A stretch of DNA of 64,000 nucleotides. Origin: Candidatus Paracaedibacteraceae bacterium (GTDB lineage Bacteria; Pseudomonadota; Alphaproteobacteria; Paracaedibacterales; CAIOTO01). The translations under genes were made by a program, and so were the position numbers. Below are positions 3,731 through 60,152 of this stretch, in pieces. Positions within the stretch are counted from its first letter, which is position 1, and every line of letters starts with the position of its first letter. The notes beneath the pieces were generated by a model. It did not search any database, was not told where the DNA came from, and saw only the letters and a list, made by a program, of their open reading frames with translations. The stretch covers positions 66,427 through 130,426 of the forward strand of contig JAUYTZ010000009.1 of the NCBI GenBank assembly GCA_030694965.1. Reading direction: 5' to 3'.

Positions 3731-6610
3731 TTAAATAGCTTCTTTCATAAATCGTTGTTTAAGATAAGGTTTTAAATAATATCCCGTGTAGCTTTTTTCA
3801 ATGTGGACAATATCTTCTGGTGTTCCTGCAGCAACAATATTGCCTCCGCCTGAACCACCCTCGGGTCCCATGTCAATAATCCAGTCAGCTGTCTTAATAA
3901 CTTCAAGGTTATGCTCAATTACAAGAACGGTATTACCCTGATCGACCAACGTATGAAGTACTTCAAGCAATTTTCGTACATCGTCAAAATGTAGGCCTGT
4001 TGTAGGCTCATCCAAAATGTACAGCGTTTTACCTGTAGCACGACGTGACAATTCTTTTGCCAATTTAACACGTTGTGCTTCACCGCCAGACAAGGTCGTT
4101 GCTGATTGACCCACTTTAACGTAACCCAGCCCTACTTGCTGTAGGCATTTTAATTTTTCGCGTACTTGTGAATGTGCTTCAAAAAAGATAACAGCATCAT
4201 CTACAGTCAGGTCTAAGATATCAGCAATGCTTTTGCCTTTGTAATGTATATCAAGTGTTTCTCGGTTATAACGTTTACCATGACATTGATCACATTTAAC
4301 ATAGACATCTGGTAGGAAATGCATTTCAATTTTAATAACGCCATCACCTTGGCATGCTTCGCAACGCCCGCCTTTAACATTGAACGAAAAGCGCCCTGGT
4401 GCATAGCCTCGTACCTTTGATTCAGGTAGCCCTGAAAACCATTCGCGAATGGGGGTGAAGCAACCAATATATGTTGCAGGATTTGATCTTGGTGTGCGTC
4501 CAATAGGAGATTGATCGATATCAATAATCTTATCGATAAATTCTATACCTTCAAGACGATCATGTTCGCCCGGTGTTTCACGCGCACCTGAAATGGCTTT
4601 TGCTAATGCTTTGTAGAGTGTTTCAATCACAAGTGTAGATTTACCTCCACCAGACACACCTGTTACGCATGTAAATGTTCCAAGGGGAATGCTTGCGCTT
4701 ACATTTTGTAAGTTGTTAGCGCGTGCTCCATAAAGACTTAAAGCCTTTCCTGCGTGACCCGTACGGCGTTTTCCGGGAAGTGGAATGAATTTAGCGCCTC
4801 GTAAGTATTGGCCTGTTATGCTGTTTGGATTATTTGTGACTTCCTCAGGTGTGCCTTGGGCAATAATTTCTCCGCCCGCTGACCCAGCTGCTGGTCCCAT
4901 ATCAATAACATAATCGGCCGTTCGTATCGCATCCTCATCGTGTTCAACAACGACAACCGTATTTCCAATATCGCGTAAGTGTTTTAGAGTTTCCAGTAAG
5001 CGGTCATTGTCACGCTGGTGTAAGCCAATAGATGGCTCATCTAATACATAGAGGACGCCTGTTAAGCTTGATCCCACTTGTGAAGCAAGACGAATACGTT
5101 GACTTTCCCCGCCAGAAAGACTGCCTGCAGCACGTGACAGAGTTAAATAGTTTAAACCAACATTCACCAAGAACATTAAGCGGTTACGAATTTCTTTTAA
5201 AATACGTACGGCAATAGCTTCTTGTTTGGGTGTTAATGTAAGTGTATTGAACCATTCATAAGCATCACTAATAGAAAATTGACATACTTCAGCAATATTT
5301 TTGTCATTAATTTTGACACATAAAGCTTCAGGGCGTAGTCGATGTCCGTGACATGTGTGGCATGTGTTTTCATTCTGATACTGTGTTAGCATGTCCCGAA
5401 CCCATTCACTTTCAGTGTCTTGCCAGCGACGAGTAAGATTAGGGATGACTCCTTCAAATGCTTTTTTGCTTACATAACTTCGATAACCATCATTGTACGT
5501 GATTGGTATAGTTTCTGTACCAGAACCATAAAGAAGAGCGCTTTGAATTTTTGCTGAAAGCTCTGCGAACGGAACATCAATAGAACCGCCATAGTGTGCG
5601 ACAACTGATTCAAGCATTTGTAAGTAATATTCACGTGTTGCTGCAATGCGTTTGCCTGAGCTTTCTTCTGACCATGGAGCGATTGCGCCACCTCGAATAC
5701 TAAGTGTATGGTTCGGTACAACAAGCCCAGCATCAAACACAACTTCGATGCCTAAACCATCACAGGTAGGGCAGGCGCCTTGTGGTCCATTAAATGAAAA
5801 TAGACGTGGTTCAATTTCTTCAAGCGTAAAACCAGATTCAGGGCAGGCAAATTTTGATGAAAAGGTCATTACTTCGCCTGTGTCAACTTGTTCAGCCCAC
5901 ACAAGCCCGCCGCTAAGATTCAATGCTGTTTCAAAGGAATCTGCAAGACGTATCATAAATTCTTTTGTGTCAGCAGAATCAGGTATAACAAAACGGTCAA
6001 CGACCACAGAAATATCATGCTTAATATTTTTTTTAAGGTCTGGCACTTCATCAAGCGAATAAAGTATTCCATCTACTTTGACGCGTTGAAATCCTTTTTT
6101 TTGTAAATCGAGAAGTTCTTTCTTATATTCACCTTTACGACCGCGCACAATAGGAGCTAATAGCATTAAGCGTGTCTTTGTAGGTACTTCAAGAACGCGA
6201 TCCACCATTTGTGATACAGTTTGTGCTTCGATCGGTAAACCTGTTGCAGGTGAATGTGGTACACCAATGCGTGCAAACAAAAGACGCATATAATCATAAA
6301 GCTCGGTGACGGTCCCAACAGTTGAACGTGGGTTTTTAGATGTTGTTTTTTGCTCAATGGAAATAGCTGGACTTAAGCCATCAATTGAGTCAACGTCTGG
6401 CTTTTCCATGAGTTGTAAAAACTGACGTGCATAAGACGACAAACTTTCAACATAGCGACGTTGTCCTTCGGCATATAATGTATCAAAGGCAAGTGATGAT
6501 TTGCCAGAACCTGAAAGACCTGTAATAACAACCAATTTATCACGAGGAATATCTACATTAATGTTTTTTAGGTTATGTTCGCGTGCACCGCGAATTTGAA
6601 TCATCTGCAT
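3731..6610 (-). CDS. uvrA: excinuclease ABC subunit A
   Basis: 959 aa. Two ABC modules (Walker [10 protein letters not shown] and GVSGGGKST; LSGGE signature twice) and CxxC zinc modules. Confidence 0.97.
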
Positions 6611-10172: not shown

Positions 10173-11483
10173 TTACCTGCGTTGTGAGCTGCGTGTTCCC
10201 ATAACAATAATAAGTGCAATAAGCGCTGCTAATCCTATGATTGCACTTACGATAAAAGAGTTGTGAAACCCAAAGTTTTTCGCAACCCAACCTCCAACAA
10301 GGGGCTCGGTAATCATGGAGGCTGTCGCACTAATTATGTAGTAAATACCAAATCCTGTTCCACGCAAATTCTCTGGGATAATTTCTGCAATAAGGGATGA
10401 AAAGATATTCATAGTAACACCGTATTGAAAGCCCCAGAATAATACACCTGTATATAGAATCCAAAGATTTCCCGCAGTTGCTAGAATAATATCAGCAATA
10501 ACTAGCAAAATAATACCAATAGCAAGTAGCCAGTAACGATTCATACGATCTGCAATTACTCCGATGGGGTAAGATGTTGCGCACCAGCCAATATTAAATA
10601 CCATAAATATAACAGGTGCGTAACGCATAAGAAGTCCATAATTCGTCGTTGCATGAAGCACGATAAATTGTTCATTTAAACGCGACAACATAAAGATGCC
10701 ATTGATAAGCATGAGCAGCCAAAAGGAAGAACCTAGTAAGCGTAGATTAGACCATTTGACGCGATGGCGCCTTTTTTCAGCAGGCAAGGGAACTTCTGAT
10801 GAGATTGCTGAATGTTCGTATCGTTTTGGTTCTTTAATAAAAATGAAAACGAGTATAAACGCAATTGATGAAGGGATGCAAGCAAGCCAGAAAACGGCTG
10901 ATATATTATCACCAAACGCCCACATAACAAGAAAACCACATACAGCCCCCATAAACGATCCTGCTGTTGCAAGGCTTCGCTTGAGTCCATAAGCACTACC
11001 TAAACGACTAGCCGGAGTAATATCTGCAACAAGGGCATCGCGTGGCGCTGAATAAATACCGTTGCCAAAGCGTTCCATTATTTTACCTGAATAAAATAAA
11101 TTAACACCAGATGCAAGTGCCATAAGTGGACGTGCAATAAATATAAGGAAGTAACCAAGCAACATAATGGGTTTTCGACGACGTAAAGCATCGCTTATCA
11201 TGCCAGATGCAAACTTCATTAAAAACGAAGCTGCTTCAGATAAACCTTCAAGAAAACCAATACCAATTAAGCCAACACCTAACATTTGTAAATATAGGCC
11301 TGAAAAAGGAAGCACCATGACCATAGAAAGATTAAACAAAAACATAGAGGCACCCAGTACCCATACCATTTTTGGAATTTGGTCTGAGTTTAGCGATGAA
11401 TCAAGAGATATTTCTTGATTCGTATTATTTTTTGTCCGTACTATTTCGTCGGGAGATTCGGTCTTTGTTCTTGAAACCGCCAT
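10173..11483 (-). CDS. MFS transporter
   Basis: 436 aa, about 12 hydrophobic segments, MFS loop 2-3 motif GMISDALRRRKP. Confidence 0.7.
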   Translation of the reverse strand: MAVSRTKTESPDEIVRTKNNTNQEISLDSSLNSDQIPKMVWVLGASMFLFNLSMVMVLPFSGLYLQMLGVGLIGIGFLEGLSEAASFLMKFASGMISDALRRRKPIMLLGYFLIFIARPLMALASGVNLFYSGKIMERFGNGIYSAPRDALVADITPASRLGSAYGLKRSLATAGSFMGAVCGFLVMWAFGDNISAVFWLACIPSSIAFILVFIFIKEPKRYEHSAISSEVPLPAEKRRHRVKWSNLRLLGSSFWLLMLINGIFMLSRLNEQFIVLHATTNYGLLMRYAPVIFMVFNIGWCATSYPIGVIADRMNRYWLLAIGIILLVIADIILATAGNLWILYTGVLFWGFQYGVTMNIFSSLIAEIIPENLRGTGFGIYYIISATASMITEPLVGGWVAKNFGFHNSFIVSAIIGLAALIALIIVMGTRSSQRR

Positions 11484-49813: not shown

Positions 49814-52012
49814 ATGTTTCTTAAAAAATGCACCATTTCAGTCGTTGTTTTTGAATTTGTATTTGTGATAAATGCAACTGCAACTGTATCTACTCCTTCA
49901 GTGGTGCCAGCAACAACTGTTCCTGTTGTTCCTATTGTTGTAACTAGTCCTTCTTACACAACACCGGTAATTTCACCTTATACAGCACCGCCGTCTCCTC
50001 CTATAAATTATTTAGCTCCACTTTCAACAAATTTGCCTGCAACGAACTATATTTCACCTGCTCAATCAATTGCGTTTAAATCTCAATCAATAGTTTCTCA
50101 GCCTAGCAATGCGTATGTAGCAAGTGCCTCGCAGTCACAAAATGAAAACTTTTCCTCAAATGTCGTAAATACTAATCCTGTAGTAGTAGCGAGTAGTATT
50201 CAAAGTGATGTAGCACAGAGGAGAAAAGCGCAACTTAAAGAGCTAATGATTGAATCTGTAGAGCTTGCTAAAGAAAAAGAGTGCATTGAAATTGAGCTTC
50301 AAAAGCAACTTAGAAATCAGCTAGAAGCACAAAAAAAGGTTTCTGTGTTACGAGAAAAAACAATCTCAGAAATGCAAAATCAACTTTTTATGGAAGCCAT
50401 TCGCGAAAAAACAGAAGAAGAAGAATTAAAATCTAAAATAAATTCCTATATGAATTTGCTAAATGCAAATAAAACAGCACAACAGCAGAGCCCAGTGAAT
50501 AGCATATTAGGGGCGTCTGGTTTTGAAAATAGTCAAAATACCTCACAACAGGTAAGTGGATCGCACCTGCAAAATAATACGTATCCACAAAATACAGCGT
50601 CAAAAGTAGCAATAAAATCAGTTGAGACAACAAACTCAGTGAATGTTCAGAGTAGTTCATTTTCGAAAATTAAGCCAGTTGGAATAGCTCAGCAATCACA
50701 AAATAGTATGTACTTGCAAAGCAATGGCATATATTCACAAAATGGTGTAGCTCAACCAAATAATAGTGTGTATCAGCAAAATAGCATGGCTCAACCAAAT
50801 AATAATGTGTACCTGCAAAATGGTGGGGCTCATTCAAGCAGCAATACGTATTCGCAAAACAGCATTATTCAACCAAGAAACACTATGTATTCACCAAATA
50901 ATGTTACTCAACAAAACAATGGTGCATATCCACAAAATAGCCTGGTGCAACAAAACAATGGCGCGTATCCACAAAATAGCATGGCTCAATCAAATAATAA
51001 TGTGTATCCGAAAAATGGTATGACTCAACAAAACAATGGTGCATATCCACAAAATAGCATGGCTCAACCAAATAATAATGTGTACCCGCAAAATGGTGTA
51101 GCTCATTCAAGCAGCAATACGTATTCGCAAAACAGCATGATTCAACCAAGAAACACTATGTATTCACCAAATAGTGCTACTCAACAAAACAATGGTGCAT
51201 ATCCACAAAATAGCCTGGTGCAACAAAACAATGGCGCGTATCCACAAAATAGCATGGCTCAACCAAATAATAATGTGTACCCGCAAAATGGTGTAGCTCA
51301 TTCAAGCAGCAATACGTATTCGCAAAACAGTATGATTCAACCAAGCAACCCTATGTATTCGCCAAATAGTGCGGCTCAGCAAGATAATAGCATGTACTCG
51401 CAAAATAGTGTGGTTTTACAAAGCAATATAATTCCGCAAAACAATCTGAACAATATGATGGGAATGTCTGGTGCATCGTTGAATCAGAGTGCCATGTTAC
51501 AGCCAGCTAACGATCAGTTTAACAATAGTATGAGTGGTGCGCAACATCCATTCCAAAATACTCTGTATCTACAGCAATCAGCAATGGCATACCCTGCCGG
51601 GGCGCAACAAAATGGCATATATCCACAGCCACAGTATGCAGGGATGTATCTGCCACAACCTAATAATATCATGTACCCGCAGCAACAAACTAATGTAAAT
51701 GGAATGTACCCACCACAGTCACAAATGGGTGGAATGATAGGAATGTTAGCGGGGCAAAAACCAATGGCGCCTCAACCAGGGATGGTTGGATCTTATTATG
51801 GGCAACAACCAGGGATTTACCCACCACAATCACAAATGGGTGGAATGATAGGAATGTTAGCGGGGCAAAAACCAATGGTGCCTCAACCAGGGATGGTTGG
51901 ATCTTATTATGGGCAACAACCAGGAATGTATTCACAACCAAATGCTATGGGGATGATGCCTGCTGTAAATTCAATTAAGGGTCTTATGAGCATGTTTGGC
52001 AAAAAGCGTTAA
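49814..52012 (+). CDS. large secreted Q/N-rich tandem-repeat protein
   Basis: Hydrophobic N-terminus, Pro/Thr/Val-rich spacer, coiled coil (residues about 135-215), then a nested QQNNGAYPQNS-type repeat array and a Met/Gly/Pro/Gln-rich C-terminus. Confidence 0.7.
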   Translation: MFLKKCTISVVVFEFVFVINATATVSTPSVVPATTVPVVPIVVTSPSYTTPVISPYTAPPSPPINYLAPLSTNLPATNYISPAQSIAFKSQSIVSQPSNAYVASASQSQNENFSSNVVNTNPVVVASSIQSDVAQRRKAQLKELMIESVELAKEKECIEIELQKQLRNQLEAQKKVSVLREKTISEMQNQLFMEAIREKTEEEELKSKINSYMNLLNANKTAQQQSPVNSILGASGFENSQNTSQQVSGSHLQNNTYPQNTASKVAIKSVETTNSVNVQSSSFSKIKPVGIAQQSQNSMYLQSNGIYSQNGVAQPNNSVYQQNSMAQPNNNVYLQNGGAHSSSNTYSQNSIIQPRNTMYSPNNVTQQNNGAYPQNSLVQQNNGAYPQNSMAQSNNNVYPKNGMTQQNNGAYPQNSMAQPNNNVYPQNGVAHSSSNTYSQNSMIQPRNTMYSPNSATQQNNGAYPQNSLVQQNNGAYPQNSMAQPNNNVYPQNGVAHSSSNTYSQNSMIQPSNPMYSPNSAAQQDNSMYSQNSVVLQSNIIPQNNLNNMMGMSGASLNQSAMLQPANDQFNNSMSGAQHPFQNTLYLQQSAMAYPAGAQQNGIYPQPQYAGMYLPQPNNIMYPQQQTNVNGMYPPQSQMGGMIGMLAGQKPMAPQPGMVGSYYGQQPGIYPPQSQMGGMIGMLAGQKPMVPQPGMVGSYYGQQPGMYSQPNAMGMMPAVNSIKGLMSMFGKKR
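50737..51420 (+). repeat. in-frame nested tandem repeats (273-nt then 195-nt units built from roughly 39-nt subrepeats)
   Basis: CACTATGTATTCACCAAATA recurs at 50881 and 51154, with a diverged copy at about 51350. Confidence 0.85.
51707..51928 (+). repeat. 2 x 111-nt in-frame tandem repeat
   Basis: TACCCACCACA recurs at 51707 and 51818. It encodes YPPQSQMGGMIGMLAGQKPM(A/V)PQPGMVGSYYGQQPG twice. Confidence 0.9.
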
Positions 52013-52136: not shown

Positions 52137-52212
52137 GGGCCCTTAGCTCAGTTGGTAGAGCATCTGACTTTTAATCAGGTGGTCGAAGGTTCGAATCCTT
52201 CAGGGCCCACCA
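52137..52212 (+). tRNA. tRNA-Lys (anticodon UUU), CCA encoded
   Basis: Manual cloverleaf: acceptor GGGCCCT/AGGGCCC, D arm GCTC-AGTTGGTA-GAGC, anticodon loop CTTTTAA (TTT at 52170-52172), T arm GAAGG-TTCGAAT-CCTTC, discriminator A, CCA. Confidence 0.95.
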
Positions 52213-52784: not shown

Positions 52785-53105
52785 ATGGGTTATTTTAGTA
52801 TTTTCAAGAACAAAAATAAATTAGATCGTCAAAATCAAATTCTTCTCCTTGAAAATATTAAAGGAGAATACGATAAACTATTTTTAATTAATCAAAAATT
52901 ACACTTGTTACATAGCAATGAAAAAATAGATACTGGTGTTTGTGAATTTTCTATTGAAAGCATTTTAAAGCAAATTACTATCTATATTGATAAATATAAT
53001 CTTGATGAAGATGTTATTGATTCACTTCTTGAAATTGGAGATATTACTACTTATTACATACATGGTTCATTTGAAAGTTTTAAGTCTCTTAAGTTTAAAT
53101 TTTAA
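52785..53105 (+). CDS. hypothetical protein
   Basis: 106-aa ORF in a very AT-rich region; no motif recognised. Confidence 0.3.
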   Translation: MGYFSIFKNKNKLDRQNQILLLENIKGEYDKLFLINQKLHLLHSNEKIDTGVCEFSIESILKQITIYIDKYNLDEDVIDSLLEIGDITTYYIHGSFESFKSLKFKF

Positions 53106-54078: not shown

Positions 54079-54813
54079 TTAATCAGCCAACCCATGAGAT
54101 CTATTGGGCAAAACAACTGATTTTGCCCAATAGTTTGCTAGTGTGTTGAGCAAATTTAGAAAAACATCGTAATCATAAGGCTTACAAATATACCCTGATG
54201 CATAAGCTTTATAGCAAGAAACCATATCTTGAAAATTAATTTTATTTGTCATGATAATTACAGGAATATCACTAAGAGTTTTATCTCTCTTGATTTCTCG
54301 AAGGACATTTTCTCCATCACGTTTTGGAATACTGAGATCCAGTAAAATAATATCTGGTCGCGGAAAATTAGTCGATACAAGCCTATTTCTCAGAAAATCA
54401 ATAACAGCTTCTCCATCATGTAGTACAAATAAGTTAACATTAACTGAACATTCGGATAAAGCACGTCTTGTTAAAAATTCATCTGCAACATCATTTTCAA
54501 CAAGAAGCACATTAAGAACGCTTTCATAATCTGGAATAACTGTATCTGATGTTGTAAAGTTTAGCTTTTTTTTAAAAGTTAGAAACCCTTGAAAAAAAAA
54601 CTTTGATTCAACACCCATTATTTCTCCTAATTGATGAAGAGTAGTAGCTGATATACGAGATTGCGCTTGCTCGTATTTTTGGACTTGTTGCAGTGAAATG
54701 CCAAGTTTTTTAGCAACTTCTAATAAAGTTAATCCTAACTTTTGACGTATAAATCGTAGGCGCTTACCAATGTATATATCAAGTTCTTTTTGTTCGTCAC
54801 AGTGCTTATTCAT
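54079..54813 (-). CDS. response regulator with N-terminal XRE-type HTH and C-terminal receiver domain
   Basis: HTH_3 region IGKRLRFIRQKLGLTLLEVAKKLGISLQQVQKYEQ. Receiver features: VLLVEND, phospho-acceptor context PDIILLDLSIPKRDG, IIMTN, YICKP. Confidence 0.8.
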   Translation of the reverse strand: MNKHCDEQKELDIYIGKRLRFIRQKLGLTLLEVAKKLGISLQQVQKYEQAQSRISATTLHQLGEIMGVESKFFFQGFLTFKKKLNFTTSDTVIPDYESVLNVLLVENDVADEFLTRRALSECSVNVNLFVLHDGEAVIDFLRNRLVSTNFPRPDIILLDLSIPKRDGENVLREIKRDKTLSDIPVIIMTNKINFQDMVSCYKAYASGYICKPYDYDVFLNLLNTLANYWAKSVVLPNRSHGLAD

Positions 54814-54829
54814 TGTAGTTTCTCCTTAT

Positions 54830-55378
54830 TTAGAATTGTGTTTTGGGTAACCAAATAGTAAATTCACATCCATTCACAGGATTGGATTGAATCGTTATTG
54901 TTCCTCCATGGGCCTCTAAAATTTTTCGACAAATCAAAAGTCCTATTTCAGCTCTTTTGCAATGCACGTTTCTTTTCAAGTAATTGGCTTCTTCAAAAAT
55001 GCTTTTGTGGTATATATCTTCAACGGCAATTGCATTATCTTTAATTTTTATTTCCCACATCGTCTCTTGGTCTTCTGCTGAGATAATGATGTTTAGAGGT
55101 TCTTCTCCCTTAAACTTAAGTGCATTTCCGATAATAGTTTTAAAAAGATGATGTATTTGTTTTTGCTTAGCCATTATGATTGGCAATCGATTAATTTGCA
55201 TGAAGTCTTCAGAAATTCCTAATAAGCAAACAAACTCATCTTTGATAGATTTTAAAACTACATTTAAATTAATTTGGCTATAATCTTTTTTTATCAATAA
55301 ATATTTTGAATAATTTAAATTAAAATTAGCTGCAGTACTTTGATTCTTACATAAGAATTTTGATTCATTTTTCATCAT
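54830..55378 (-). CDS. histidine-kinase remnant: HATPase_c domain only, with no H-box/DHp or sensor domain
   Basis: N box HHLFKTIIGNALKF, degenerate G1 (KDNAIAV), G2 GLLICRKILEAHGG. The ORF begins where helix 2 of a DHp domain would end. Confidence 0.65.
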   Translation of the reverse strand: MMKNESKFLCKNQSTAANFNLNYSKYLLIKKDYSQINLNVVLKSIKDEFVCLLGISEDFMQINRLPIIMAKQKQIHHLFKTIIGNALKFKGEEPLNIIISAEDQETMWEIKIKDNAIAVEDIYHKSIFEEANYLKRNVHCKRAEIGLLICRKILEAHGGTITIQSNPVNGCEFTIWLPKTQF

Positions 55379-55396
55379 GTTATATATCCTAAAAGC

Positions 55397-56278
55397 TTAT
55401 ATTTTTTTAAAATGATTGATGACACTGTCGCTGATTTCTTTTTCAAAAAATGATGTTAATAAATGTCCCATTTTTGAAATAATTTTAAGGGTTGAATTTG
55501 GAATAATCTTTGCTGTTGTATGCGCATGTTGAATGGAAATAATTGGGTCATCACTGCCATGAATAACAAGCGTGTTATGAGTTATAAAATTGCTTTTAAA
55601 AAAAAGATTACTTTGATTTTTTGCTAAAAGGTGGTTATGTATGAAAGAAGGCGCATTATTTTCATTTATTCTTTTCTTAAGAAGGTAGGCAAACGCTTCT
55701 GCTTCTTTTTCGTTAAATGGCGCATAAGGACCGTTCAGCAGCTTTAAATGGGAGATTGCTTTTGAAAGCCACTTTGGGTCATCTACTAACATTCTGCTGA
55801 CACGTTCTAATTTTACAAAAATACCAGGTGATGATTTATGAAAAGTTTCATACTCATTTATTCTGATTTCTTCAATATCCATTGCATTATAAGTTGTCAT
55901 AAGAAGAGCAAGAGAGGATACTTTTTCAGGATTGTTAATAGCGATCATTTGAGCAAGGTATCCGCCCATTCCGCTACCAATCAGGTGAGCCTTTTCTTTT
56001 TTATAAAATTTAATAATGCATAGGACATCATTAGCCATGTCATGCAAATAATATGGAGAATGATTAAAGTTAATATGCTGTGAAAGACCTGTGTCTCTGT
56101 TATCAAAACGTACAACAAGGTAGCCTGAATTTGCTAATGTATTGCACCATGAATCACTCCAATAAATTCCCTGTTTTTCAGCACCTGAAATTAAAATAAT
56201 TAGAGGGTCAGATAAATTGCCAAAAGACTCTGTCCATAAATTTGCGCTTAAAGATTTTACGTAACAGATATTCGACAT
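55397..56278 (-). CDS. alpha/beta-hydrolase fold protein with Gly at the nucleophile position
   Basis: HLIGSGMGGYLAQ aligns to the canonical (V/I)GHSMGG elbow, so the Ser becomes Gly. The Asp (HGSDDP) and His (KMGHLL) positions are retained, but the HG oxyanion motif reads SG. Confidence 0.7.
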   Translation of the reverse strand: MSNICYVKSLSANLWTESFGNLSDPLIILISGAEKQGIYWSDSWCNTLANSGYLVVRFDNRDTGLSQHINFNHSPYYLHDMANDVLCIIKFYKKEKAHLIGSGMGGYLAQMIAINNPEKVSSLALLMTTYNAMDIEEIRINEYETFHKSSPGIFVKLERVSRMLVDDPKWLSKAISHLKLLNGPYAPFNEKEAEAFAYLLKKRINENNAPSFIHNHLLAKNQSNLFFKSNFITHNTLVIHGSDDPIISIQHAHTTAKIIPNSTLKIISKMGHLLTSFFEKEISDSVINHFKKI

Positions 56279-56926
56279 GTCTAGCCTTGAAATTTCAACT
56301 GTTTAATATATGAAACTTTTAGGTCTTTTCATAAGATGCAGCAAGCTACTAAATTTGATAGATTTCAACAGAGAATTTAAGTTAGTTAGAAATGTTACTT
56401 TTAGTCGAATTTATGTTAATAAATTATTTAATATTAATAAAGACATTTAAAAATATATTAATACATAACATATAAGAATTTTTATTTTTATTAAAAGTTA
56501 TCATATTACGTGATATCCTTTTTAAAATCTATTAGATTTGATATAGAAACGGTATGCGCAATTTCTCACTTTTTCAACTTGCGTTAAAAATATATAACTT
56601 TATCTTTCACATATTGTATGATTTTTATTCATTACATGTTTTATTCATCGAACTACGCGTTCAAAATTGCGCACAAAGAACTGGTGATGGACTATTTCCG
56701 CATGATGCGCGGGGCGTTTGGTAACTTGCTAAGGCGTCATTAGGAGCTTCAAATCTTATGTTAAATAATGTTTGGGAAAAAAAATGAATCAGCTAAATAT
56801 CCACTTTTTAGAAGATAAAGAATGTATGAGTGAGAAAATTAATAAATTTATTACAATATTATTTTTATTTACAAAAAAATTACGTTCCTTTATAAGATAT
56901 ACAATGACGCAATGTAGAGGAAAAAT

Positions 56927-57464
56927 ATGAGAAATATAGATAAAATTTGCCATAAGATCTACACTGAGTCTTTTGGTAATGAACAAACAATAGATGGCGT
57001 AAACAAATGCTTTCAAAATATATGTTTGCTTCATCAAATTAAGCGTTTTTCTATTGTACAGATTATCAATGATGAAAAGAATAAAAAGAACAAATCAAAC
57101 TTTTTTAGTTACCACACTAGTTATCCAAGCGCCTGGGTGAAAATATTTAGACGCTAAATACTATGAATACGACCCTGTTTTAAAAAATATAATAAGCATG
57201 CCTTTTCCATTTTATTGGGAAAAAGATACATTTAAAAATATGTCAGAAAAAGAAAATAATTTCTTTAACGAAGCCAAAAATTTTAATATCACAACAGGAA
57301 CAACTATTCCACTTACACCGAATAATAATAAAACTTCTTATTTAACCATACTTGATCTTGATTTAACAAATAATTTTAACCTTCTTTTTTGGCTGCGGGC
57401 TTCAGCAAATGCCTACTTTAAAAAAAAAGATGAAATAACTAATTTAAAAAATAAAGATTCTTGA
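56927..57464 (+). pseudogene. LuxR-family autoinducer-binding domain, frameshifted and lacking the HTH domain
   Basis: ORFs 56927-57157 and 57198-57464 are two frames of one paralogue of the adjacent luxR. YPSAWVK (frame 1) continues as YLDAKYYEYDPVL (frame 2) across the AAAA run at 57140-57143. The reading frame ends 13 nt before the next gene. Confidence 0.7.
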
Positions 57465-57477
57465 ACTGAGGGCTGTT

Positions 57478-58194
57478 ATGAACATTTGTGAAATAGAAAA
57501 AGATCCTATAAATTTTATTTTTGAATCTGTTTCCTTAGGAGAGCTTCAAGGAAGGTTTAAGGATATTTGCGAATATTATAATATTGAAAAATATGCTTTG
57601 GTAAAAATACTAAAAGAAGATAAAAAATCTTTAGATAATAAAAATGAATTTACATGTTACGATAATTATCCAGAAGAATGGATTAAAATGTATAATAGTA
57701 ACAAATATTACTTAAAAGACCCAGTTTTGATTGATATTAAAAATATGAGTCAAGCAACTTATTGGCACATTGAAAACTTCAAAGATGCTACTATTGAACA
57801 AAAAAGAATTTTAGACGAGTGCGCTGACTTTAATATAAAAAGGGGAACTACAATCCCCTTGCTGCCGAATAATAAATATAATAGGTTTTTAACCCTAATT
57901 GGCACTGATATTCATGATCCAAAAGTTATTTATAATTTAGCTAACGCAGCCGTTATTTATTTTGAACGTAATGAATATTTTGTGAATAAAAATAAAAGAG
58001 GTATACTTACAACAAAAGAACAAGAAATTATGGAATTAAAAGCGCTTGGATATCACAATAAACAAATTTCTGAAATCTTATCACGTAACTATGAAACAAT
58101 TGCGTTGCATTTAAAGAACATCCGCAAAAAATTTGGTGTATTCACAACAGAGCAAGCCATTGCAAAATACTACCAAGATTTTTTTAATAGTTAA
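57478..58194 (+). CDS. luxR: LuxR-family AHL-responsive transcriptional regulator
   Basis: The autoinducer-binding residues are all present (W..Y in EEWIKMY, DP in KDPVL, W in TYWHI, G in RGTTIPL). C-terminal GerE-type HTH is LTTKEQEIMELKALGYHNKQISEIL. Confidence 0.85.
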   Translation: MNICEIEKDPINFIFESVSLGELQGRFKDICEYYNIEKYALVKILKEDKKSLDNKNEFTCYDNYPEEWIKMYNSNKYYLKDPVLIDIKNMSQATYWHIENFKDATIEQKRILDECADFNIKRGTTIPLLPNNKYNRFLTLIGTDIHDPKVIYNLANAAVIYFERNEYFVNKNKRGILTTKEQEIMELKALGYHNKQISEILSRNYETIALHLKNIRKKFGVFTTEQAIAKYYQDFFNS

Positions 58195-58849
58195 GAATGT
58201 TAGTTCTAGATTTTTTTTCATTCAAATTACCTAAATTTAATCTAGATTCATACTTTAAAGATTCATTTACTCCAACCATTAGTTTATCTGATGAATAAGT
58301 CATTGGTGGGAACGCAAAGATAGATATTTTTTCTCCATGAAATAACGTTTCATTAATATCATACATGTATAAACCACTTCTTTTTGTTAATCTTTTAACT
58401 GCCGGATAAGCTAGCGTTAAATATGTTTCAACTTTTTTTGATTCAAGCCCAAATTTCATTAAACCATATAATAATAGCTTTGATATAGCTCCTTGCATTT
58501 CCGACTGATAATCCTCATCTAATGCTGTGTCCACTGCAAATCGGCTTGTTTCCCAGTAACCGGGCCTTTTAAATTCATGTATATCAGGCAGGGTATCTGC
58601 AAAATAAGTATCGAACATACACGGATGTATCATTTCAATAAAACGAATACATCCACGAACGATTCCTTTTGCATCTTTATATATTAAATAATAGGTACTA
58701 TTTTCATCGTACTCATCTTTTTCGATTTGGTTTTCATGATTAACCTTCCATTTCTTTTTTTCAAAAAAAACTTTATATCGCAGTCGATACATACTTTCAA
58801 GGTCATCACGAAATACGTCATAATTAGTCGGCTCTATTAAATGTAGCAT
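58184..58849 (-). CDS. luxI: LuxI-family acyl-homoserine-lactone synthase, copy 2
   Basis: MYRLRYKVFFEKKKWKV, EKDEYDE, GCIRFIEM and WETSRFAVD match the Autoind_synth hallmarks. The ATG at 58849 with GGGGAG 9 nt upstream is preferred over the TTG at 58855. Confidence 0.85.
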   Translation of the reverse strand: MLHLIEPTNYDVFRDDLESMYRLRYKVFFEKKKWKVNHENQIEKDEYDENSTYYLIYKDAKGIVRGCIRFIEMIHPCMFDTYFADTLPDIHEFKRPGYWETSRFAVDTALDEDYQSEMQGAISKLLLYGLMKFGLESKKVETYLTLAYPAVKRLTKRSGLYMYDINETLFHGEKISIFAFPPMTYSSDKLMVGVNESLKYESRLNLGNLNEKKSRTNILNY

Positions 58850-59543
58850 TCCCAAACTCCCCTAATTTTTGTTTCATATGCAAAAAATATTCAGTATCAT
58901 CCTTGTACATTGGAACAAAACTCCACAAAACAGGCTTTTTTTGGTTTATATTTATTTTTTTGGTCATTTTGGTGTAGCAATAGTTAAGCGAGGGGAACGA
59001 CGAAACAACAATTTCTTCTTTTGTTTCTTCATTAATCATAATCCTGTTGATTTCTGAAATAAGTAAGCCATTCATTTTGAATAGTTCAAGTGTTTTGGGA
59101 TAAGCAATTGATAAGGTACATTGAATTTCTTCAATTTCAATAGCAAAGTAAAGATAGCCAGTTGCAAGGTTCAAAGAGATGTTTTTAGCCATTTCAGGTG
59201 TATATGTTTCATTGAAAATAGGGTCAACAGCTAAGCGGCTTATTTCCCAATGTCCTGGTCTTTTAAATTCAGTTAAATTGGGCAAAGCAAATTTAAAAGG
59301 TCCATCAAACATGCAATCATTTGTCATTTCGACAAAACGCACACATCCTCTAATTGTTCCACATGCGTCTTTATAGACAAGATAGTACATATTCTTTTCA
59401 TCATATATGTCCCTTTCCATTCCATCATCACTGTCTACGTTCCACTTCATATTTTCAAAAAATACTTTGTGACGTAAACGATACATTTCATCAAGATCAT
59501 TTCTATGTAAATGATAATTCTTTGGGTCTATTAAAATTAACAT
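58824..59543 (-). CDS. luxI: LuxI-family acyl-homoserine-lactone synthase, copy 1
   Basis: MYRLRHKVFFENMKWNV, ERDIYDE, GCVRFVEM, WEISRLAVD. GAGGAA RBS lies 8 nt upstream. The 3' end overlaps copy 2 by 26 nt in a different frame. Confidence 0.85.
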   Translation of the reverse strand: MLILIDPKNYHLHRNDLDEMYRLRHKVFFENMKWNVDSDDGMERDIYDEKNMYYLVYKDACGTIRGCVRFVEMTNDCMFDGPFKFALPNLTEFKRPGHWEISRLAVDPIFNETYTPEMAKNISLNLATGYLYFAIEIEEIQCTLSIAYPKTLELFKMNGLLISEINRIMINEETKEEIVVSSFPSLNYCYTKMTKKININQKKPVLWSFVPMYKDDTEYFLHMKQKLGEFGNATFNRAD

Positions 59544-60152
59544 AATTTAATTCCTCGTAATTAACTTATACTGTATATGTTAATTAATTTCACATTTTCA
59601 ATATATGTAATGACTAAATCGTAAATAAATGTTGAAAAAAATAATAGATATCAAATTTAATAGTATTGCTTTAACTGTTTTTTAATTATATGTTTACGTA
59701 TTTTTATTTTTTAACATATTAAGTTAATTAAATTTATTTTTTTAAAATTATATTATTTTTTAAAATTTTTACTATTAAATAAAATAGTTATGATAATTTG
59801 CAATCGTGCTAACTTTAAAGGAATTTTCTATATGTAGGCCACGAAATGAATTTATTTTTCCACCATTAATTTATTTTCATTTTAAATTTATTATTTTTAT
59901 AAGTAAATGTGTGTATTGAGAGAAAAATTTAGTTTTTTTCAACTAATGTAATAATGATTGTAATGATTGTTTTTCAATGGTTTATCTTGAAAGAATATTG
60001 ACTGTAGTGCGCTTTCAATAAAATTATTTCCTTTTTTCGGGTAAGACGTTGCTTAAAATAAAATTCATTTTAAACAAGAATATCTAGACATATTTCAACT
60101 TGAATGTATTTTTTTTTATTCATACAGTTCGAATAGTTATGCTTTTTAGCAG

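Follow-up and report, generated by a model that had tools for sequence, protein, structure and literature searches.

A putative quorum-sensing-linked operon encoding a serine-less hydrolase-fold protein, a histidine kinase remnant, and a response regulator in an uncultured alphaproteobacterium

We analyzed a 64,000-nucleotide (nt) stretch of contig JAUYTZ010000009.1 ("the window") from the genome of a Candidatus Paracaedibacteraceae bacterium (1.5 Mb, 98.6% complete, ~30% GC), whose relatives are labeled as uncultured Alphaproteobacteria or Holosporales metagenome-assembled genomes (MAGs). Three minus-strand genes in the window, here called the triad, encode an alpha/beta-hydrolase-fold protein (positions 55397 to 56278; 293 amino acids [aa]), the isolated catalytic and ATP-binding (CA) domain of a histidine kinase (HATPase_c only; 54830 to 55378; 182 aa; "the stub"), and a regulator that combines an XRE-type helix-turn-helix (HTH) with a receiver domain (54079 to 54813; 244 aa). 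We propose, with a probability of roughly 0.45, that the triad is an operon controlled by LuxR and acyl-homoserine lactone (AHL), and that it is the cut-down descendant of a two-part sensor made of a hydrolase and a soluble PAS histidine kinase. Judged from sequence comparisons, a hydrolase-kinase sensing pair appears to have been turned into a pseudoenzyme-based, quorum-sensing-linked operon. An open reading frame (ORF) scan reproduced the gene order and the spacers of 18 nt (hydrolase-stub) and 16 nt (stub-regulator) given in an initial annotation of this DNA, and Pfam searches confirmed all three of its domain calls. Each gene is preceded by a ribosome-binding site of the AGGA/AAGGAG type.

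The first protein matches Pfam family Abhydrolase_1 (E value, 2.8e-21; 76.8 bits), and its AlphaFold (AF2) model is confident (pLDDT, 92.7), including the fold of the lid and pocket; family and fold matches both support the original call of a hydrolase fold. The nearest PDB sequences are EstT, EstX, and RdmC (E values, 1e-29 to 1e-34). Foldseek neighbors of the model were EstT/EstX, with TM-scores of 0.80 to 0.84 (0.78 to 0.84 with RdmC included), and the AHL-degrading esterase Est816 ranked 35 among the structural relatives. The best NCBIfam model, NF052610, scored 182.3 bits against a cutoff of 420, which is below the EstT/EstX threshold. RsbQ was found neither among the 20 sequence matches nor among the top 50 fold matches. 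A kinship to the plant receptors D14 and KAI2, to which the initial annotation had likened the protein, was not recovered; they were not near neighbors (a KAI2-like chain matched only with an E value of 7.7e-6), and their place was taken by the EstT/EstX esterases and RdmC.

The protein has the fold of an alpha/beta-hydrolase but not its complete serine-acid-histidine triad. In an alignment with 19 relatives, the nucleophile motif reads G-S-G-M-G-G, compared with a family consensus of G-x-S-M-G-G. Gly103 occupies the position of the nucleophilic serine, and Asp244 and His272 are retained. The serine is missing from all 10 members of the clade to which the protein belongs (Gly in 8, Asp in 2), His272 is invariant in it, and Asp244 is nearly so. 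All of the serine-less proteins are monophyletic (support, 100/100); they sit on a long stem nested within serine-type hydrolases of the same order, and the serine-less state is kept throughout the clade at 38 to 71% identity. The tree indicates that the nucleophile was lost once, at the base of the clade. Because it is missing clade-wide, the quenching role suggested earlier is unlikely. Within the clade, loci with PAS kinases are basal, and all short kinases fall inside an AHL-linked subclade (support, 99/97) that comprises the window, L003 (an 11.5-kb Logan assembly contig from a metagenomic relative), P0005, L013, and P0009. A profile scan of genomes and metagenomes yielded, among the matches listed, no new serine-less member and almost exclusively distant serine-type proteins at 25 to 35% identity; the exception was L017, the alphaproteobacterial MAG that had already been recovered as L011.

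In the L013 hydrolase (positions 4032 to 4925) and in P0009, the residue at the nucleophile position is Asp (GSDMGG), one base change away from Gly, a substitution that may bring back a nucleophile like that of dehalogenases or epoxide hydrolases. This branch is the one in which the hydrolase is paired with an intact kinase that has a dimerization and histidine phosphotransfer (DHp) domain in addition to the CA domain (L013). A further serine-less protein (GCGMGG; 49% identical) occurs in the EukProt protein set, as P0007. Its source is presumably a symbiotic or contaminating bacterium, which would be in line with life in association with a host; the uncultured alphaproteobacteria studied here are probably host associated.

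The second protein matches Pfam HATPase_c alone (residues 71 to 180; E value, 8.6e-17) and does not match HisKA. Its nearest relatives are bona fide PAS histidine kinases of 580 to 670 aa, and in an alignment with related complete kinases it starts in the tail of the second DHp helix. Between its flanking stop codons, the frame of the gene spans only 188 aa, and the DNA upstream of it is occupied by the hydrolase gene. The DHp domain and its H-box have therefore been deleted rather than frameshifted, and no H-box is hidden upstream. Pfam and the length of the frame accordingly agree with the initial description of a HATPase_c domain without H-box, dimerization domain, or sensor. Among similar-length candidates scored in a search of 5.8 billion proteins, the stub had one close relative, also of 182 aa, which is encoded on L003.

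The stub thus has neither the DHp domain with its phospho-accepting histidine nor the full set of N, G1, F, and G2 motifs that define a HisKA-type kinase. Asn85 of the N-box is retained. The G1 box is DNGIGI in related kinases, DNAIAV in the window stub, and DNGINI in the L003 stub; the G2 box is GSGIGL in related kinases, RAEIGL in the window stub, and RYEIGL in the L003 stub; and the F-box, present in related kinases, has been lost from both stubs. The G1 and G2 glycines are required for nucleotide binding in GHKL ATPases. Since they have decayed, the stub is probably ATP blind as well as devoid of a phospho-acceptor, and it should be unable to autophosphorylate. Its AlphaFold model is confident at about residues 31 to 129 and 145 to 180 and poor at residues 1 to 30 and in the lid (residues 130 to 144). 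We ruled out an anti-sigma kinase of the RsbW/SpoIIAB type as the identity of the stub, given that its relatives are PAS histidine kinases and its ATP motifs have decayed. A second candidate for a stand-alone CA gene, L007 of congener G004, proved to be an ordinary PAS-HisKA/HATPase kinase: in the region C9:60429-60887, a 231-aa PAS-HisKA ORF is followed by a 144-aa HATPase ORF, the two being split by a stop or frameshift. This split kinase lies ~1.3 kb from the luxI gene of G004.

A kinase-derived gene lies directly 3′ of the serine-less hydrolase gene in five of the six informative loci. At the basal loci L189 and L190/L191, this gene encodes a same-strand PAS-HisKA-HATPase kinase of 372 aa and 376 aa, respectively (PAS_4 at residues 24 to 131, then HisKA and HATPase_c), and a further kinase is encoded upstream of the hydrolase (a 495-aa PAS kinase in L190/L191). 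At L013/L014, the kinase is a 258-aa HisKA-HATPase protein without PAS, its gene overlaps the hydrolase gene by 4 nt, and an AHL locus is adjacent. In the window and L003, the 182-aa CA stub and then the regulator follow the hydrolase, again beside an AHL locus. L011 (congener G005) has no downstream kinase gene and no other kinase or AHL genes nearby, and the P0005 contig, which carries an AHL locus, ends after the hydrolase gene. The complete kinases at the position of the stub therefore measure 258 to 376 aa, and in L013, L189, and L190 their H-box, N, G1, F, and G2 motifs are all intact. None of 10 serine-type hydrolase relatives from the same order has a kinase neighbor; the genes beside them encode, for example, a small conserved protein and what looks like a membrane transporter. 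The contrast between serine-less and serine-type proteins is significant at ~0.001 by Fisher's exact test, in which shared ancestry is ignored. The initial annotation had held that simple decay would be indicated by relatives with a full-length kinase and an unlinked hydrolase; the relatives have fuller kinases with the hydrolase linked.

These loci indicate a stepwise reduction of the kinase, from PAS-DHp-CA to DHp-CA (L013) to CA (window and L003), and the stub is likely to have descended in place from the hydrolase-linked kinases. No AHL genes were found in the available DNA of the basal clade members L189, L190, and L011; searches started from the L013 and L190 kinases turned up no longer contigs. 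We conclude that the pairing of hydrolase and kinase probably predates the link to AHL genes.

The complete triad recurs on L003 in the same order (hydrolase, stub, HTH-receiver regulator), beside a luxR-like gene (luxR′), luxR, and two tandem luxI genes, which answers the question of co-occurrence raised in the initial annotation. We compared the two loci codon by codon; their synonymous divergence (dS) is ~1.2 to 1.5, i.e., near saturation, and the ratios of nonsynonymous to synonymous divergence (dN/dS) given here are rough and, if anything, overestimated. Amino acid identity and dN/dS are 71% and 0.14 for the hydrolase, 52 to 54% and 0.22 for the whole stub, and 63% and 0.21 for the regulator; for LuxR and LuxI, they are 74 to 78% and 0.09 to 0.13. 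Within the stub, the CA fold (residues 66 to 182) is 62% identical, with a dN/dS of 0.14, and the N-terminal remnant (residues 1 to 65) is 33% identical, with a dN/dS of 0.40. Between the two loci, 25 to 34% of the nucleotides of the triad genes differ, all frames are intact, and the stubs align without a gap. When 34% of the stub bases were changed randomly in 20,000 runs of a neutral simulation, the frame stayed open in a fraction of 5e-5. We conclude from these comparisons that the triad is under purifying selection and is not a fresh relic. The alternative offered in the initial annotation, that the kinase is a truncated relic, hence holds as far as its origin goes, in that the stub derives from a complete kinase and is probably kinase dead; it does not hold for its present state, which is under purifying selection.

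The third protein contains HTH_3 at residues 19 to 69 and Response_reg at residues 102 to 220 (56.5 bits, against a cutoff of 30.2). The phosphorylation pocket of the receiver is intact (E106/D108, D159, T189, and K211), as in a response regulator, and the closest sequences are Rcp1, RcpA, and RcpB (E values, 1e-22 to 1e-25). Domain order and matches are those described previously, i.e., an XRE-type HTH in front of an Rcp1-type receiver. The architecture is common in this alphaproteobacterial lineage: HTH and receiver occur together in ~90 of the 120 listed clusters. In other relatives, HTH-receiver genes are located beside genes for PAS-PAS kinases of 650 to 665 aa, often in arrays. A second 244-aa HTH-receiver gene, which we call the main copy, is located on contig C24 (162620 to 163354). 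It shares 93% identity, at a dN/dS of 0.04, with the other L003 copy; it lies ~1.5 kb from a gene for a 499-aa PAS kinase with intact H-box and ATP motifs, and it adjoins a gene that aligns (29% identity) with the BON-domain gene of L003. The genome encodes five complete HisKA kinases and one ChpT-like protein.

The operon regulators are paralogues inside the same small clade as the main copies (support, 96/93), on branches 4 to 8 times longer. We conclude that the triad regulator is a recent, fast-evolving duplicate of the main XRE-HTH/receiver regulator of the lineage. The window and L003 operon regulators do not pair in the tree, a placement that could reflect gene conversion, rate effects, or independent duplications. 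The L003 operon regulator groups with the main copies and not with the window operon copy (support, 95/91; L003 positions 10333 to 11067 versus 1965 to 2699). No regulator gene was found downstream of the kinase gene in L013 or L189. Because L013 lacks a regulator gene after its kinase gene, the duplicate is confined, among the loci observed, to those in which only a stub of the kinase is left.

The first gene of the AHL locus (56927 to 59543) lies 648 bp from the triad, in agreement with the ~650 bp given in the initial annotation. ORF and Pfam searches identified a broken luxR′ that encodes only an AHL-binding domain (56927 to 57464, plus strand), luxR (57478 to 58194, plus strand), and two tandem luxI genes (58184 to 58855 and 58824 to 59543, minus strand). 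The window luxR′ is split into ORFs of 76 and 88 aa; its counterparts of 180 aa in L003, 185 aa in L013, and 183 aa on the P0005 contig are unbroken. The link goes beyond proximity, both in conserved synteny and in a shared palindrome. The same AHL gene set adjoins the hydrolase gene in L003, L013, L014, and the P0005 contig, and the synteny survives inversion of the cassette (inverted in L013/L014 and in the P0005 contig).

A lux-type palindrome of 16 bp (56346 to 56361; minus-strand sequence, CTATCAAATTTAGTAG) precedes the start codon of the hydrolase gene by 67 nt. A second copy (59648 to 59663, minus strand) is positioned 104 nt upstream of the first luxI; the consensus is CTATCAAATTTGATAG. 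The distance from the box to the hydrolase start is 67 nt in the window, 69 nt in L003, and 71 nt in L013, and that to the start of the first luxI is 104, 107, and 106 nt, respectively, and ~106 nt in congener G004. Similar boxes occur upstream of luxI in G004, G007, G053, and G016 of the same order, in which no close orthologue of this hydrolase was found. L189 and L190, two loci showing no AHL genes, lack the box. Five sites with no more than two mismatches occur in the 1.5-Mb genome, a number equal to that expected from shuffled sequence, and three of the five are inside this 7-kb locus. The palindrome therefore has the conserved, promoter-proximal position of an element belonging to a LuxR regulon. 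Since the second copy precedes luxI, we assign the box to the AHL system, and since the palindrome precedes both the hydrolase gene and luxI at conserved distances in three genomes, the triad is probably under LuxR/AHL control. We conclude that the box is probably the LuxR operator of the lineage and that the triad is a predicted LuxR/AHL target operon.

The flanks of the L013 boxes are ACCT...AGCT and AGCT...AGGT; the classical lux box of Vibrio fischeri ends in ACCT...AGGT. A third copy of the palindrome, with two mismatches, is present at 52978 to 52993 (CTATCTATATTGATAA), in or beside an unannotated 106-aa ORF (52785 to 53105), and has no obvious downstream gene. A weaker copy, with three mismatches, lies at 56529 to 56544 (CTATTAGATTTGATAT) in the same divergent intergenic region as the hydrolase box, ~400 nt upstream of the broken luxR′.

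We propose the following history and mechanism for the LuxR/AHL-controlled descendant of a hydrolase-kinase sensor. Since the loss of its serine, the hydrolase-fold protein would have served the kinase encoded next to it as a nonhydrolytic partner or binding subunit. In one sublineage, the pair moved beside the AHL locus and acquired a lux-type operator, whose position is observed and whose binding by LuxR is predicted. The kinase would have lost its PAS domain first, as in the 258-aa DHp-CA protein of L013, and then, in the window and L003, the DHp domain with the H-box together with the G1, F, and G2 motifs. The stub most likely persists as a protein-binding adaptor, comparable to ChpT and Spo0B, whose CA-like domains are blind to ATP and dock receivers. 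The regulator would have to obtain its phosphoryl group either from small phosphodonors or from a different kinase, for which the PAS kinase encoded beside the main paralogue on contig C24 is the leading candidate. Population density would enter mainly through transcription of the operon.

Several observations weigh against this proposal. The complete triad was found in two genomes only. Its genes evolve 4 to 8 times faster than the main regulator, which also fits a partly relaxed constraint. The CA-domain tree has too little resolution to trace the stub to the hydrolase-linked kinases, which group together in 20% of the bootstrap trees; the stem of the stub pair measures 1.42. The palindrome could possibly be the operator of the XRE-HTH regulator and not of LuxR. 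Finally, PAS kinases form tandem arrays in these bacteria, and the adjacency of hydrolase and kinase could therefore partly be an inherited neighborhood and not a selected coupling. Taken further, this last point leads to the view that the three genes became adjacent through descent from a kinase array and through local duplication and do not act together. The kinases on both sides of the hydrolase in L189/L190, a CA tree that does not recover a single origin of the hydrolase-linked kinases, and the lack of a downstream regulator in L013 and L189 are all compatible with it. We nevertheless regard it as quite unlikely: an immediately downstream kinase gene on the same strand has been kept in five of six loci despite differing flanks (AHL genes, a flavoprotein reductase-like gene, or other kinases), the genes overlap by 4 nt in L013 and are separated by 16 to 18 nt in the window, and a kinase neighbor is found in 0 of 10 serine-type relatives.

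It is distinctly improbable, in our view, that the triad is the decaying remnant of a two-component system on its way out of a reduced genome, with a functionless hydrolase and stub and only the regulator (or nothing) of importance. Such decay would account for the loss of nucleophile, DHp domain, and ATP motifs, for the drop in HATPase_c score from ~90 bits in intact relatives to 62 to 70 bits, for the fast evolution relative to the main regulator, and for the dN/dS of 0.40 and low model confidence of stub residues 1 to 65; the broken luxR′ next door and a genome of only 1.5 Mb also fit. It is at odds with dN/dS values of 0.14 to 0.22 at saturated dS, with intact frames and a gap-free stub in two genomes that differ at 25 to 34% of triad nucleotides, with the ~5e-5 chance that the stub frame survives neutrally, with the conserved upstream cis element, and with a serine-less state shared by a whole clade at 38 to 71% identity.

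Two further explanations concern the hydrolase-fold protein itself. It might bind an AHL, or another lactone or ester, produced by the neighboring synthases and act through the stub, as an adaptor, on the regulator, which would provide a second route of perception independent of LuxR. Four loci of one subclade have kept the gene beside an AHL locus with two synthases, which argues for such a receptor, as do structural relatives that open lactone or ester bonds (the macrolactone esterases EstT/EstX and, at rank 35, Est816), the retention of His272 and Asp244 along with a lid and pocket that are modeled with confidence, and selection on all three genes. Against it stand the basal members L189, L190, and L011, which have no AHL genes in the available DNA, such that the pairing is older than the AHL link, and the lux-type box, which already offers a simpler AHL input. 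We therefore consider this pathway unlikely. Its more specific version, in which a nonhydrolyzing AHL or lactone receptor would form with the stub a phosphorylation-independent switch on the regulator, is very doubtful; if true, it would be a bacterial counterpart of plant receptors of the GID1/D14 type and a second route of AHL perception alongside LuxR. Least probable of the readings considered here is that the protein is still an enzyme that modifies or degrades a signal reported by the downstream proteins, using either the His/Asp dyad and water or, in the L013 branch, an Asp nucleophile. Alpha/beta hydrolases with an Asp nucleophile include dehalogenases and epoxide hydrolases, the L013/P0009 branch has GSDMGG at this position, and His272 and, nearly, Asp244 are invariant in the clade. 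However, 8 of the 10 proteins in the clade have Gly at the nucleophile elbow, and the long stem branch suggests a change of function.

We compared the triad with known systems. GID1 lacks one residue of the catalytic triad, and D14 and KAI2 retain it. The window protein resembles these receptors, in principle only, in the use of a hydrolase fold as the ligand-sensing partner of a signaling protein; the sequence relationship is limited to the superfamily. EstT, EstX, and RdmC, an aclacinomycin methylesterase, are the closest sequences and folds, but they are active serine esterases, whereas the window protein has Gly at the nucleophile and reaches 182 bits of the required 420. ChpT and Spo0B are similar to the stub in that a kinase-derived CA fold without ATP motifs is used for protein contacts, and a ChpT-like gene is present in the same genome. 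They differ in keeping the DHp domain and the phospho-histidine; the 182-aa stub has neither and cannot carry phosphate because the DHp domain is entirely missing. The receiver is nearest to the single-domain receivers Rcp1, RcpA, and RcpB, from which the triad regulator differs by its fused N-terminal XRE-type HTH. As in LuxI/LuxR circuits, luxI and a second operon are each preceded, at a constant spacing, by a palindrome of ~16 to 20 bp, and the L013 copies have ACCT...AGGT ends in common with the Vibrio fischeri box. The core of the putative operator is CTA-N10-TAG, in contrast to CTG-N10-CAG.

The closest layout is that of the RsbQ-PAS bipartite module, known from RsbQ/RsbP of Bacillus subtilis and from RsbQ-PAS-histidine kinase pairs in Gram-negative bacteria (Nadezhdin, Brody & Price 2011, PMC3183031). 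In that study, 45 hydrolase genes adjoined PAS domains fused to phosphatase, histidine kinase, or cyclase outputs. RsbQ requires its catalytic triad. The similarity lies in a hydrolase gene directly upstream of a signaling gene with an N-terminal PAS domain, a layout found exactly, with histidine kinase output, in basal L189 and L190. In the window and L003, there is no PAS partner: the unit has lost PAS and DHp but has gained a response regulator and a lux-type operator. Moreover, the hydrolase is EstT/RdmC-like and not an RsbQ homologue, and its nucleophilic serine has been replaced. The comparison to RsbQ-RsbP made in the initial annotation is thus apt for the layout of the basal relatives and fails for the hydrolase family.

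RsbQ/RsbP was the first known pair of a hydrolase and a PAS signaling protein, and the serine-less clade represents a natural experiment on what the hydrolase contributes to such pairs. The serine was lost once and the pairing with a kinase was kept, which argues that the hydrolase can contribute through binding or contact and not through turnover. In the series from PAS-DHp-CA to a selected CA stub without ATP motifs, the change of a histidine kinase into a pseudokinase, step by step, would be unusually easy to follow, and it goes together with the recruitment of a quorum-sensing operator to the operon. The triad is also the first predicted target operon, with a candidate operator sequence, for the two-synthase AHL system of these bacteria. 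A literature search outside subscription journals found no paper on the serine-less clade, the CA-only protein, or the XRE-HTH/receiver architecture.

The surroundings of the triad are AT rich, and this limits some of the scans. A consensus promoter scan gave 30 sites against 25 expected, in DNA of 25 to 33% GC where it is uninformative, and a terminator scan of the triad region, uninformative for the same AT richness, gave none. In the ~970 nt downstream of the regulator gene, there is no credible ORF, and the only Rfam match over the region is a tRNA at 52137 to 52209. AT richness is pronounced between 52.1 and 60 kb (17 to 35% GC). Just upstream of the tRNA, at 49814 to 52012, the window encodes a Q/N-rich repeat protein of 732 aa whose N terminus is hydrophobic. 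An 813-aa hybrid histidine kinase (HisKA, HATPase_c, and receiver) is encoded on the same contig (C2:136676-137767), ~6 kb past the end of the window and roughly 15 kb from the operon.

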